In this document: piece after piece, positions 3,861-18,479 of the stretch
How the letters are laid out: every line of letters begins with the position of its first letter
How positions within the stretch are numbered: the first letter of the stretch is position 1
DNA from: a virus
Taxonomy: Duplodnaviria > Caudoviricetes
Strand: one strand, 5' to 3'
Length of the DNA stretch: 64,000 nt
Virus record (IMG/VR): IMGVR_UViG_3300037067_027616
Span: 192,001-256,000 of that record
The notes under the pieces: generated by a model
Told to the model about the DNA's origin: nothing
Database searches by the model: none
What the model saw: only the letters and a program-made list of their open reading frames with translations
Position numbers and translations under genes: made by a program

Positions 3861-3937
3861 TGGTGCGCCCGGTGGGATTTTAACCCACGACCATCGGTTT
3901 TAGAGACCGTCGGCTCTACACGCTGAGCTACGGGCGC
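3861..3937 (-). tRNA. Amber suppressor-type tRNA, anticodon CTA, atypical body
   Basis: Acceptor GCGCCCG/CGGGCGC+ACCA; D-stem GCTC/GAGC; CGGT-CTCTAAA-ACCG anticodon arm; T-arm GTGGG-TTAAAAT-CCCAC. Confidence 0.8.
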
Positions 3938-3944
3938 ACGATTA

Positions 3945-4256
3945 TCATGCCGTCTTCAGCCCAGAAAAAACGGTTCCTATGTCAAAGCACGCCACCGCAG
4001 TGATCTGCCCATCGAGATCCGGCTCGTGGAAAGCACTGAACCGCTTTTTGTTCATCGTGAGTATGCTTTCCCAAGTACGTATTTCTATGAGGTTTCTCAC
4101 TGCAAGGAACACAATGGTACCGTTCCCCCAGACACGGAAAAGTTCACCGTGTTCCAAAGAGTATTGAGCCAATGCGTGTGCACCTTGAACCAACCGGTAT
4201 GTTTCTGAAAGATCCTGGCGCACCAACACGTACATTTTAGGCTGTTGTGGGGACAT
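3945..4256 (-). CDS. Peptidyl-tRNA hydrolase 2-like protein
   Basis: KMYVLVRQDL, VQGAHA, FHEPDLDGQITAVA motifs; start reassigned to ATG 4256 after GGAGG. Confidence 0.75.
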   Translation of the reverse strand: MSPQQPKMYVLVRQDLSETYRLVQGAHALAQYSLEHGELFRVWGNGTIVFLAVRNLIEIRTWESILTMNKKRFSAFHEPDLDGQITAVACFDIGTVFSGLKTA

Positions 4257-4476
4257 GTTGTATCTCCTCCACAATCGCCCAATCAGGCTCGTTACCTTCG
4301 CGAGGACGCTCGATACGCTCATACTCCACTCCCCTTAAAAGGCCATAGGCAATGAGAACGTGCCGACATCTCCTCGACTTCGGTCCGTGCTTCCATCCGC
4401 TCGCCTTGATTTCGATGGCGAGTTCCTTGATTTCCTTCTTGAGTGACGCGATGTGTTCATATATGCTTGTTTCCAT
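4237..4476 (-). CDS. Small hypothetical protein (RHVLIAYGLLRG)
   Basis: 79-aa ORF with AAAGGAAGG SD, overlapping the pth2-like start. Confidence 0.7.
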   Translation of the reverse strand: METSIYEHIASLKKEIKELAIEIKASGWKHGPKSRRCRHVLIAYGLLRGVEYERIERPREGNEPDWAIVEEIQHVPTTA

Positions 4477-4538
4477 GGTACCTTCCTTTATGGTTTGGTT
4501 GACTTACAGACACTACCCAAAACAAAGGAAGGTCATGG
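4473..4538 (-). promoter_or_regulatory. Anti-Shine-Dalgarno hairpin sequestering SD and AUG of 4237..4476
   Basis: CCAUG-ACCUUCCUUU (4538..4524) is complementary to AAAGGAAGGU-ac-CAUGG (4489..4473). Confidence 0.75.
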
Positions 4539-4583
4539 AGGCTTTAAGACTCGTACCTATGTGAATCCAGACACCTATCTCAT
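4533..4583 (-). CDS. Leader uORF with two in-frame UAG codons: M-R-*-V-S-G-F-T-*-V-R-V-L-K-P-P-UGA
   Basis: AAGGAG SD 7 nt before ATG 4583; TAG at 4577..4575 and 4559..4557; ends on the anti-SD strand. Confidence 0.65.
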
Positions 4584-4963
4584 GGGGTTCTCCTTATGAC
4601 AATCAGCTTCTCAATCGAAACGAGGTTAAGAAGTGTACAACGTGTGGAGGCTTCCTGTATATTTTTCTTGGCCGCTTCTGCTTTTGTAACGCTTTCTGCC
4701 GAACACGTTATCCGTATCCTGCCGTTCGATAACGACAACGTAATGGAATCGTATTCCGTTTCTTCAGGTATCTCCGTAAGGAGACACTTAAGAAGGGATA
4801 ATTCAAAGAGTTCCCGGGGTTCAAATGAACCAGCTACGTCCGGGAGGAGGTTATTAGCTGTCTTGTTGTACGATGCCAACTTCCGTATCCCCTTTAGAAA
4901 TTTCCTGCGGTGACAGAAGCCCGGCGATTTCCATGGAGTACATGGTGACATGCTTCTCGGCAA
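4580..4963 (-). CDS. Hypothetical protein (true start probably near 4879)
   Basis: ORF track; 5' part overlaps 4854..5060. Confidence 0.5.
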   Translation of the reverse strand: MPRSMSPCTPWKSPGFCHRRKFLKGIRKLASYNKTANNLLPDVAGSFEPRELFELSLLKCLLTEIPEETEYDSITLSLSNGRIRITCSAESVTKAEAAKKNIQEASTRCTLLNLVSIEKLIVIRRTP

Positions 4964-5060
4964 CGTCCCTGGCTACAAGCCCCATCTTGCATGCCTCGAC
5001 CATTGTATTGGTGAGGTCGTTCATGACGGACAGCCTGTCGAGTACTTCATCGCTTAACAT
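4854..5060 (-). CDS. Small hypothetical protein
   Basis: 68-aa ORF abutting the upstream gene. Confidence 0.55.
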   Translation of the reverse strand: MLSDEVLDRLSVMNDLTNTMVEACKMGLVARDVAEKHVTMYSMEIAGLLSPQEISKGDTEVGIVQQDS

Positions 5061-5648
5061 TTATTCCCCCAATATTGTAGGATCTTTTCCATAAAGTTTG
5101 AGCATCCGCTCGGCATCGGCCCAAGTGTATAGTCCGGGAAGGTAGTGGCCCCCGAATCTTCTCGATACATTTATAAGCCTCAAAGACAGGGCCTTTTGAA
5201 AGCGTTGCTGTATGTCAAAACAGAGGTCACGGGATTTCTTGTCAGTGCAACGGACGCACATGTCCCACCCGTCTTCGCCTGCGCCTATGTTTCTTATGAC
5301 AAAACTCTGCGATCGGAAGTAGTCCCTTACGGAAACAGCGAGGGCGCCGGCTCTTTCAAGCATGCCATCGGAGTCGTTCGTTTTGATGGCCTCGTCCATT
5401 GTTTCCGTGGAAACACCTTGTTTTCCCACAACAGTCACGAGCCAAGATTCAAGTATGTCAAAGAATTGAGGCATAGCCGCCAACCTGTTTCCGAATTCGG
5501 CCGTGTTTGCTCGGAGATACTGCATACGCTTATCATACACCGCCTTGACCTCAAGGTCATCAAGATGATCCTTGTGTTTGTCATACAGGTTCTTCTCGTA
5601 GACCATGAGATAACTCATGGTGATGGTCGCCTCACTGAGTTCCATCAT
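5061..5648 (-). CDS. Hypothetical protein
   Basis: 195-aa ORF with GGAG SD. Confidence 0.7.
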   Translation of the reverse strand: MMELSEATITMSYLMVYEKNLYDKHKDHLDDLEVKAVYDKRMQYLRANTAEFGNRLAAMPQFFDILESWLVTVVGKQGVSTETMDEAIKTNDSDGMLERAGALAVSVRDYFRSQSFVIRNIGAGEDGWDMCVRCTDKKSRDLCFDIQQRFQKALSLRLINVSRRFGGHYLPGLYTWADAERMLKLYGKDPTILGE

Positions 5649-5737
5649 AGTATGTCTCCAGACACGGTGAAACGGGCGCGCGACGTCAAAGACGTGGTGC
5701 CATATACAAATATACTTTCGTGTAGCTTTATTTTAAC

Positions 5738-6091
5738 CTAATGCTGTTTTTGTGGGGCGGGTTCGTTCAACATCTGGAACGATGCTTCATTGAGGTAGGA
5801 CACTGTATCCATGAGGTTTCGGCATTCGAGCAGATCGTTGCCGTGTATGTTGGGGGTACTTTTGGTGGCAAGTTTGTATGATTTTAGTGTACGATTGGTC
5901 GGTTTTACCATACTGTTTTGTGCAGGCTCAGGGAAACTGACTGAAGGTTGTTCCGCGAACACAGGTACGTTACCAAGAGTCACCCCAAGGTCAAATTGCG
6001 ACAAACGCGACTGGGTTTTCGCTATGGAGACACAGGAAAACCACACGACAATAACCATGAGGGAGGTCAAAGCGAAATAATATTTTTTCAT
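5738..6091 (-). CDS. Hypothetical secreted protein
   Basis: MKK followed by a hydrophobic signal peptide. Confidence 0.65.
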   Translation of the reverse strand: MKKYYFALTSLMVIVVWFSCVSIAKTQSRLSQFDLGVTLGNVPVFAEQPSVSFPEPAQNSMVKPTNRTLKSYKLATKSTPNIHGNDLLECRNLMDTVSYLNEASFQMLNEPAPQKQH

Positions 6092-6137
6092 ACGCCTTCA
6101 CCTTTCCACACGTGGAAGGAGTATGAGAACTTTATTA

Positions 6138-6163
6138 AAAATGCGAAGTGTTGCTTCGCATTT
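6138..6163 (-). terminator. Intrinsic terminator ending the Asn/Pro/Gln tRNA operon
   Basis: AAATGCGAAG-loop-CTTCGCATTT hairpin followed by a T/A tract just after tRNA-Pro(GGG). Confidence 0.7.
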
Positions 6164-6169
6164 ATATGA

Positions 6170-17382: not shown

Positions 17383-18063
17383 TTATGCCAAATCACTTAT
17401 AAAGCCTTGATTATACCGCTTATATGATGTTCGTCTTCCGTTGGAGTGGTTCACGACCATGTCATCTCGCACCCGTATAGTACGGACCTTGTCACCCCGC
17501 ATACCACTTCCGACCTGCCCTCGCCTGGCATCATTCACGTTTCCGGTCACTTTTGACGTGAGCCTGTGGTGGATCCTCTGGCGCAACACGCTCATCGCTT
17601 GTTCCTTATTTTGGTGCTGGCTACGCTCCGATTCGCATCTCACAATAATGCCCGTCGGGATGTGCTTCACCTGTACGGCAGAATCCGTCACGTTTCGGTG
17701 TTGTCCGCCTTTTCCGGAACCGCGCGCTATTGAGATCTCTATGTCACTACACGGTATGTCCACCTTTACCCCGGGGATCTCTTCGAGGACGGCCACTGTG
17801 ATGGTGGAAGTCTGTACACGGCCGCGCTTCTCTGTCGGAGGTATCCTTTGCCACCTGTGACCGCCCGGCTCGTTCTCAAACGTTCTTGCGGCGTCTTCTC
17901 CCGATATTTTGATGCAGACGTAACCTGGTCGCATCTCCAGGACACGCATCTAATATCCCTTCAAAACGCACACCTTTCCATAAATCCTGAACTGATCTTC
18001 AACTAAAAGCTTTGCATCGTCTCCGCCTTCGGCGGCTCTGATTTCCACTATGATTGATTGCAT
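17383..18063 (-). CDS. Class I release factor, RF1-like (PxT, GGQ), lacking domain 1, with in-frame TAG at codon 38
   Basis: MQSIIVEIRAAEGGDDAKLLVEDQFRIYGKVCVLKGY-TAG(17952..17950)-MRVLE...GGHRWQRIPPTEKRGRVQTS...GKGGQHRN; GGAGG SD before ATG 18063. Confidence 0.85.
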
Positions 18064-18079
18064 GGTACCCTCCGTTATA

Positions 18080-18192
18080 AAACGCCCTGGTGTTCCCTAC
18101 GTCCGTCCTGATAGCCCGGGCATCGGGGCATAGGAACGGTAACCTTTCGGTGAGACTTGTTCGCCGAAAGAAAACTCGGTTGCACCTTTTGG
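18080..18192 (-). ncRNA. Candidate structured RNA between tRNA-Glu(CTC) and the release factor gene
   Basis: CTTTCGG/CCGAAAG and GTTCCTATG/CGTAGGGAAC stems. Confidence 0.35.
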
Positions 18193-18199
18193 CTTATAT

Positions 18200-18277
18200 T
18201 GGTAGCCCGGATGAGGTTCGAACTCATGAGTCTCCGCCTTGAGAGGGCGGTGTCCTAGCCAATTAGACGACCGGGCC
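18200..18277 (-). tRNA. tRNA-Glu(CTC)
   Basis: CCGCC-CTCTCAA-GGCGG; ACCA end. Confidence 0.93.
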
Positions 18278-18310
18278 TTACATTCAAAAGTGCTTTTGTC
18301 GTCAGCAGAC

Positions 18311-18322
18311 TGTCAAAGATCA
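18311..18322 (-). promoter_or_regulatory. boxA-like element TGATCTTTGACA
   Basis: 10/12 match to rrn boxA; same position as the 7786..7797 copy. Confidence 0.55.
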
Positions 18323-18325
18323 ACG

Positions 18326-18358
18326 AAAAAACCCCGCCAGGCTTGGCCTGACGGGGTT
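18326..18358 (-). terminator. Attenuator terminator 3 (Glu/Gly/Ile2/Arg-AGR operon)
   Basis: ACCCCGTCAGGC-CAA-GCCTGGCGGGGT followed by TTTTT. Confidence 0.88.
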
Positions 18359-18381
18359 TGTGTATAAGTACAATACTCCCG

Positions 18382-18441
18382 TCAGGTGGGTATTCTTCCC
18401 TCCCTACCTTCTTCAGCTATTCTGACGGTTGCGTTTATCAT
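18382..18441 (-). CDS. Leader peptide 3 MINATVRIAEEGREGRIPT (near-leaderless mRNA)
   Basis: ATG 9 nt after the -10 box; codons 7-17 AGA ATA GCT GAA GAA GGT AGG GAG GGA AGA ATA. Confidence 0.85.
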   Translation of the reverse strand: MINATVRIAEEGREGRIPT

Positions 18442-18450
18442 AGGATATTA

Positions 18451-18479
18451 AATATAACACAAAAAAACGGTGTTGTCAA
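18451..18479 (-). promoter_or_regulatory. Sigma70-type promoter TTGACA-17-TATATT for leader 3
   Basis: -35 at 18479..18474; -10 at 18456..18451. Confidence 0.85.

Follow-up and report, generated by a model that had tools for sequence, protein, structure and literature searches.

Codon-matched leader reading frames precede the tRNA blocks of a huge phage and suggest ribosome-mediated attenuation of tRNA operons

Two open questions, how phage tRNA genes are controlled and why nearly complete sets of them are found in large phages, are raised by the locus described here, a tRNA array in a phage genome of 466,729 bp and 49% G+C (IMG/VR record IMGVR_UViG_3300037067_027616), of which bases 192001-256000, a stretch of 64,000 nucleotides (nt) hereafter called the window, were studied. 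The gene content is typical of a very large phage and includes an NrdD-type reductase, a UvsX-like recombinase, an exonuclease V-like helicase and NAD-salvage enzymes. According to ARAGORN, the whole genome holds 49 tRNA genes and one transfer-messenger RNA (tmRNA), and 47 of the 49 tRNAs lie in a single minus-strand array at genome positions 173901-210277, 21 of these inside the window. All 47 are preceded by five units of the same design, A, B and C in the window and D and E just outside it, in which a TTGACA-17-TATATT promoter on the minus strand is followed by a short open reading frame (ORF), a strong intrinsic terminator and the tRNA genes. What these units do is suggested by the codons of their short ORFs, which match the tRNAs of the block behind them, and from the sequence we consider it probable that they are ribosome-mediated transcription attenuators placed before tRNA operons, giving feedback on the decoding of each block's own codons.

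The elements of the units stand out from their surroundings. On the genome's minus strand the promoter sequence is present 21 times, against some 0.03 occurrences expected by chance, and is therefore regarded as a real promoter class of the phage; the three copies in the window are the best matches in the region (Table 1), and those of units D and E belong to the same class, with -10 boxes ending at genome positions 188684 and 183836, respectively. In the 37-kb array the only terminators of -21 kcal/mol or stronger are the five unit hairpins, which span -22.6 to -29.7 kcal/mol and have U-rich tails. The leader ORFs of the five units comprise 19-40 codons, and a Shine-Dalgarno sequence, AGGAG-like or purine-rich, is found in four of them.

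A leader codon was scored as matched when it is readable by the tRNAs of the block under standard wobble rules. By this definition, own-block codons amount to 11/18, 11/20, 11/25, 16/22 and 24/39 in leaders A to E, respectively, which sum to 73/124, compared with a mean of 29.8 (standard deviation 5.0, maximum 55) in 200,000 draws of same-length segments from real genes of this genome. The +1 and +2 frames of the same leader DNA hold 25 and 26 own-block codons, versus the 73 read in frame. When codons were reshuffled among the five leaders, 73 was reached in none of 100,000 trials, and the true assignment of leaders to blocks, with its 73 matches, is followed by one with 56, the highest among the remaining 119 (mean 26.6). 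Taken together, the frame, segment, reshuffle and assignment tests indicate that the match is specific both to the reading frame and to the block. Counted from the side of the tRNAs, the leader of the same unit offers a cognate codon to 45 of 46 sense tRNAs; under the null the mean is 22.5 and no draw exceeds 38.

The correspondence extends below the level of the amino acid. The Arg codons AGA and AGG occur only in the leader that precedes Arg-TCT and Arg-CCT, and CGA, CGC and CGG are found in the leader that precedes Arg-ACG and Arg-CCG; likewise, Ser AGC versus Ser TCN, and Ile ATC/ATT versus Ile ATA, are split between different leaders together with their tRNAs. The codon choice thus tracks the isoacceptor and not the amino acid. 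Much of this had been put forward in a first-pass annotation of the window, and the proposal held well: all elements of its three promoter-leader-terminator-tRNA units are present, the Arg codons divide exactly, and of the 20 sense tRNAs of the window 19 do have a cognate leader codon, Gly-CCC being the exception. The 11-codon segments in which 10, 9 and 10 codons were said to match are correct as counted, the first falling to 8/11 if the CAT tRNA of block A is an elongator Met tRNA, and the permutation of leader codons against cluster anticodons that it called for gave the reshuffle and assignment results above.

Units D and E were not used when the attenuator hypothesis was framed, and hence represent a successful prediction of it. 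Leader D (23 codons) is rich in Ile (ATC/ATT), Ser (AGC), Phe, Asp and Met codons, and the block behind it encodes Phe, Asp, two CAT, Ile-GAT and Ser-GCT tRNAs. Leader E (40 codons; genome 183690-183813, minus strand) heads a block of 20 tRNAs, and for 20 of the 20 anticodons it contains the exact Watson-Crick codon. The matched codons of leader E run opposite to the order of the tRNA genes, the distal ones first (Spearman |rho| 0.64, p 0.0025), a reversal that may reflect the way this leader came to be assembled; no trend of codon order with gene order was seen in the other four leaders.

A link between the leaders and the terminators is provided by base pairing. In all five units the terminator 5' arm, which starts 21-27 nt past the leader stop codon, is complemented by a strand that lies at the ORF 3' end or overlaps the stop codon, and the pairing of this arm with the leader strand and its pairing within the terminator are mutually exclusive. 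The effect of a translating ribosome was modeled as a 28-nt unpaired block on the transcript, folded up to the terminator loop. When any of the matched codons occupies the A site, the terminator 5' arm is predicted to pair upstream with P 0.7-0.96, and with the ribosome on the last codons this upstream pairing drops to P 0.04-0.46. The matched codons are concentrated in the zone that permits upstream pairing (65/96 inside versus 8/28 outside, Fisher p = 3.6e-4), and in all five units the last matched codon of this zone precedes the modeled switch point by one to three codons. Tested against dinucleotide-shuffled upstream sequence, antiterminators A, D and E score higher than expected (p 0.005-0.04; about 0.01 for A).

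Table 1. Positions of the attenuator units, their tRNA blocks and associated elements, numbered from the first base of the window.
Feature	Position	Strand	Remarks
Promoter A	18451..18479	-	TTGACA-17-TATATT, TG-extended; 11/12 consensus positions
Leader ORF A	18382..18441	-	19 codons + TGA; codons 7-17 match Glu, Arg (AGR), Gly and Ile (ATA) tRNAs
Antiterminator 5' strand A	18375..18387	-	overlaps leader stop codon; perfect 9-nt complement of terminator 5' arm
Intrinsic terminator A	18329..18359	-	14-bp stem, -25.3 kcal/mol, U tract
tRNA block A	15483..18277	-	Glu-CTC, Glu-TTC, CAT (probable Ile2), Arg-TCT, Gly-TCC, Gly-GCC, Gly-CCC, Arg-CCT
Probable internal promoter	17249..17277	-	TTTACA-17-TATATT; recurrent variant, 9 times on genome minus strand
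Promoter B	14072..14100	-	TTGACA-17-TATATT; 11/12 consensus positions
Leader ORF B	13981..14046	-	21 codons + TAG; matched codons for Lys, Val and Arg (CGN)
Antiterminator strand B	about 13986-13997	-	within final leader B codons
Intrinsic terminator B	13920..13953	-	-27.8 kcal/mol, interrupted U tract
tRNA block B	10352..13909	-	Lys-TTT, Val-TAC, Lys-CTT, Val-GAC, Arg-CCG, Arg-ACG; interspersed protein genes
Promoter C	7963..7991	-	TTGACA-17-TATATT; 11/12 consensus positions
Leader ORF C	7860..7940	-	26 codons + TGA; AGGAG Shine-Dalgarno; codons 6-16 match Gln, Asn and Pro tRNAs
Antiterminator strand C	about 7877-7888	-	leader codons 18-22
Intrinsic terminator C	7803..7838	-	-25.5 kcal/mol
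tRNA block C	6170..7777	-	Asn-GTT, Pro-TGG, Gln-TTG, Pro-CGG, Gln-CTG, Pro-GGG
Amber tRNA-CTA	3861-3937	-	2.2 kb beyond block C, past weak terminator 6162-6140

From this arrangement we infer that the leaders are translated, that ribosome and polymerase are timed against each other and that the outcome responds to tRNA supply. The host sigma-70 RNA polymerase would start at the phage promoter and transcribe the short leader ORF, and a ribosome would translate this leader as the polymerase proceeds toward the strong terminator, the 5' arm of which could then pair either with its own 3' arm, resulting in termination, or with the strand at the leader 3' end, resulting in antitermination. A fast ribosome would cover the leader strand as the terminator forms, so that transcription would stop and the tRNA block stay off, and where an aminoacyl-tRNA is scarce the ribosome would be delayed at a matched codon, leaving the strand free to pair first and allowing the polymerase to enter the tRNA genes. 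The newly made tRNAs would speed up leader translation and thereby close the loop. The expected outcome is a negative feedback acting on each block, which would hold the decoding capacity at a set level with codon and isoacceptor resolution. Possible triggers are a poorly fitting host tRNA pool, the decay of host tRNAs during infection and tRNA-cleaving defences, all of which we regard as candidates; the sequence points to none of them in particular, including the anticodon nucleases given as an example in the first-pass annotation.

The same relation between leaders and blocks was found in other phages. A histidine-phosphatase gene located inside the array was used as a probe and led to three IMG/VR huge-phage contigs, in which the homologues of this gene sit away from the tRNA arrays, these being located by a tRNA scan. 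The relatives G001 (330 kb) and G002 (416 kb) carry the same leader-antiterminator-terminator units, with 25-31 nt from the stop codon to the terminator, and divide their tRNAs among the blocks in another way. In both, the Arg CGN tRNAs are grouped with those for Pro and Gln, and the corresponding leader has CGN, Pro and Gln codons, whereas in the phage studied here the CGN tRNAs are grouped with Lys and Val and the CGN codons lie in that leader. Similarly, Asn is found with Phe, Ser-GCT and Cys in G001 versus with Pro and Gln here, and in both the Asn codons shift along. In G001 the score of the true leader-block assignment is 67, and that of the runner-up among 24 is 51. The long leaders of G001 and G002 (L004, 12962-13090; L007, reverse strand, 1791-1931) are homologous, with a central stretch common to both, and each of them tracks its own block despite this homology; the long leader of G002 also retains a Trp codon, and a Trp tRNA was not found in its block. 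Leader codons and downstream anticodons therefore co-vary in these relatives, a comparison that the first-pass annotation had suggested, and its codon-matched attenuators find support in the codon statistics, the frame controls, the geometry model, units D and E, and this covariation.

A second probe, an RF-1-like protein encoded in block A, gave 40 further loci, which were searched with a crude automatic unit finder. Over the 40 loci, where clean and false units are mixed, the own-block fraction was 0.43 compared with 0.28 and 0.27 in the other frames, and these results are used solely to show that further clean units exist. Examples are those of L023 at 6426, L030 at 17155 and L038 at 19447, in which all the block tRNAs are covered and 12-18 codons are matched, versus 1-5 in the other frames. 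As a negative control, the tRNA region of phage T5 has many small ORFs and displays no frame-specific match to the downstream tRNAs. At the DNA level, a blastn comparison of the array with a phage collection gave tRNA-level matches only, and no viral relatives were found with a 301-aa protein adjoining the array as probe.

Among known systems, the closest are the leaders of ilvGMEDA and ilvBN, together with trpL, hisL, leuL, thrL and pheL, which likewise consist of a promoter, an ORF with control codons and mutually exclusive hairpins between which the position of the ribosome decides; multivalent leaders of the ilv type also sense several codon types in one leader, as proposed here. In contrast to the enterobacterial leaders, the targets in the phage are tRNAs and a few interspersed proteins instead of biosynthetic enzymes, and the control codons are matched to anticodons, of up to 20 kinds and mostly present once, instead of forming runs. 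No sequence or Rfam relationship to those leaders exists, and an Rfam scan of window positions 3000-19500 with E up to 1 returned tRNAs and sub-threshold noise only, with neither a leader family nor a T-box. The E. coli pheST operon with its pheM leader also attenuates a gene of the translation apparatus, the product of which feeds back on the supply of charged tRNA, but its target is a synthetase and its run of Phe codons senses a single amino acid, whereas tRNA genes and many codons are involved here. T-box riboswitches likewise link read-through to the state of a specific tRNA by means of a codon-like specifier; however, they bind uncharged tRNA without a ribosome, control synthetase or amino-acid genes and have a conserved T-box sequence, for which no match was found. 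Bacterial tRNA operons and the tRNA clusters of T4 and T5 resemble the array in their arrayed tRNAs with small ORFs, homing endonucleases and early promoters of the sigma-70 type, yet no attenuator has been described for the T4 and T5 clusters, and in bacterial tRNA operons it is the promoter on which stringent and growth-rate control act. Full-text searches of literature available without subscription gave no description of attenuator-controlled tRNA genes, either phage or cellular.

Several observations weigh against the attenuator reading and should be considered together. Four of six sequence-level hallmarks of an attenuator were found, namely the leader ORF, the cognate control codons, the intrinsic terminator and the antiterminator, but a convincing protector (1:2) hairpin was looked for in the units and not found. 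The default in the absence of translation consequently differs from that of the enterobacterial leaders, as an untranslated leader is predicted to read through (antiterminator P 0.70-0.91 with no ribosome). Of the trp/his/thr-type attenuation named in the first-pass annotation, the logic of a ribosome-mediated attenuator is supported, and the design is not strictly of the trp type. The position of the ribosome agrees with an occlusion model that is an equilibrium one, the actual decision being kinetic, and even there unit C is imperfect, with a ribosome at its stop codon leaving the antiterminator uncovered (P 0.82), whereas in the other four units it is covered. In the no-ribosome state, antiterminators B and C are no better than shuffles. 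Furthermore, most matched codons are single where classical attenuators use runs of the same codon, and a low sensitivity is expected.

Other points concern individual units. Leader A lacks a Shine-Dalgarno sequence, and about 3 nt separate its start from the predicted start of transcription; since its ATG lies only 10 nt past the -10 box, the mRNA is near-leaderless. Three of the leader A matches require the CAT tRNA of block A to be an Ile2 tRNA, and Gly-CCC of the same block lacks a cognate codon in this leader. The U tracts are interrupted in the terminators of units B and E. The internal promoter-like site already flagged in block A is present, belongs to a recurrent variant (Table 1) and could express the distal tRNAs of the block independently of attenuator A; probable internal promoters are also found at genome positions 181166 and 177807, making a bypass possible for distal tRNAs there. 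Finally, protein genes are interspersed among the tRNAs, and therefore the operons are not purely tRNA operons.

Different explanations of the same units must be weighed against this background. The one that survives best shares its mechanism with the attenuator reading and differs in what selected it: the units would be a counter-defence switch, kept mainly to detect cleavage by anticodon nucleases (of the PrrC, PARIS, retron and VapC types) and to replace the lost tRNAs. Defences that target tRNAs exist, phage tRNAs are thought to counter them, and the sequence holds nothing that contradicts such a role. The leaders, however, sample nearly all codons, with 45 anticodons represented, which goes beyond the Lys, Asn, Arg, Glu and fMet species of the known nucleases, no defence or anti-defence genes were identified in the operons, and a general homeostasis of the tRNA pool needs fewer assumptions; a purpose confined mainly to defence seems unlikely to us.

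It may also be argued that the leaders sense amino acids or charging, as classical attenuators do, and that the tRNA genes merely share this signal. The trp, his and ilv attenuators respond to amino-acid starvation through ribosome stalling, and because a ribosome senses only aminoacyl-tRNA, a lack of tRNA is by mechanism alone indistinguishable from a lack of amino acid; starvation would stall ribosomes at the same codons and open the same attenuators. Against this, extra tRNA gives no relief of an amino-acid shortage, and a match at the level of isoacceptors would be unneeded. The partition of AGR from CGN, of AGC from TCN and of ATY from ATA, together with the representation of all 20 block E anticodons in their leader, argues that what is controlled is how much of a given tRNA species is available, not the amino-acid supply, and we regard an amino-acid sensor as very unlikely.

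Still less probable, in our view, is that the ORFs are translated and act by another route or with the opposite sign, through Rho-dependent polarity, the stability of the mRNA or precursor, or a ribosome-dependent processing of the tRNA precursors. The shuffle result for antiterminators B and C, the predicted read-through of untranslated leaders and the nearly leaderless state of leader A are compatible with such a route. Against it stand the combination, in all five units, of a strong intrinsic terminator 21-27 nt past the stop codon with a complementary strand at the ORF 3' end, the recurrence of this spacing in the relatives and the matched codons that end one to three codons before the modeled switch point. 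That the ORFs are untranslated spacers lying by chance between ordinary promoters and leaky terminators has a negligible likelihood given the codon statistics, the frame specificity, the covarying recurrence in other phages and the absence of the signal in T5.

Among the tRNAs of block A, the one with a CAT anticodon (17153-17227, minus strand) deserves separate mention. It has C4-G69, C5-G68 and the A73 discriminator, which we take to be determinants of lysidine synthetase, and gave no match in a blastn comparison with E. coli genomes. Two more CAT tRNAs are encoded in the genome, an ordinary one and one mismatched at 1-72, as is an Ile-TAT tRNA. Leader A has ATA at three positions and ATG nowhere in its interior, and from this the block A CAT tRNA is predicted to be of the Ile2 (lysidine) type and to read ATA. 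Between the two Glu tRNAs of the same block lies a gene for a 188-aa protein with an RF-1 (GGQ) domain (17383-17949, minus strand), the one used above as a probe, which keeps just the C-terminal end of the PCRF domain and looks like a truncated release factor or an ArfB-like peptidyl-tRNA hydrolase. Relatives of this protein are found in the 40 IMG/VR loci and in many phage records; in LR745208.1, a public huge-phage record with an RF-1-like gene, no tRNAs were found within 20 kb of that gene.

The other protein genes scattered through the tRNA operons, all on the minus strand, encode the histidine phosphatase (14709-15494), an AP2-like DNA-binding protein (14104-14667), an HTH protein (10412-11062), a NADAR-domain protein (9219-9704) and a rubrerythrin-like protein (8332-8928), and a GIY-YIG endonuclease gene is located at 6262-6666. 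Elsewhere in the genome, a promoter of the same class stands right before Asn-ATT and Leu-TAA tRNA-like genes (G000:C1:411456-411917, plus strand) without a leader or terminator, which indicates that some tRNA-like genes of the phage are not attenuator-controlled, and the tmRNA gene lies at genome 422973-423321.

The tRNA-CTA, of the amber-suppressor type, given its distance from block C and the weak terminator in between (Table 1), may fall outside that block. Leader B is alone among the leaders in ending with TAG (13981-13983), and if this codon is suppressed by the phage CTA tRNA, 13 extra codons would be read up to a TGA inside the terminator hairpin; such suppression would be expected to melt the 5' arm of terminator B. 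About 600 nt upstream of the tRNA-CTA gene, a mini-ORF (4533-4583, minus strand) with a good Shine-Dalgarno sequence has TAG at codons 3 and 9 and ends in Pro-Pro-TGA; right behind it, a CCTTCCTTT run complements the Shine-Dalgarno sequence of the following gene (ATG at 4476), and judging from these features the mini-ORF and the CCTTCCTTT run could form a translational switch that senses suppression. A recoding of TAG in the genome was considered and rejected, as ORF coverage is already 92% under code 11 and treating TAG as a sense codon brings no greater gain than doing so with TAA.

If the units are attenuators of the kind proposed, the rule that relates leader content to tRNA identity would have predictive value, as in the case of the block A CAT tRNA and its reading of ATA, and the leaders, being compact, modular and predicted to be sigma-70-compatible, should be easily tested and might be put to use as sensors for how available an individual tRNA is. 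They would extend textbook leader-peptide attenuation from amino-acid supply to individual tRNA species. With modest confidence, we propose that huge phages audit the decoding capacity of the infected cell codon by codon, each leader testing for one isoacceptor after another whether host and phage tRNAs together suffice, and transcribe a tRNA block only where a deficit arises; these would be the first tRNA genes found under attenuation and the first leader peptides found to sense tRNA species instead of amino acids. Feedback on the speed of codon decoding would explain how such phages avoid both a shortage of tRNAs and a wasteful excess, and would offer a mechanism by which their tRNA sets work across hosts with different tRNA pools. 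If this is true, the tRNA supply of the phage would adjust itself automatically to differing host pools, to the decay of host tRNAs and to tRNA-cleaving defences.

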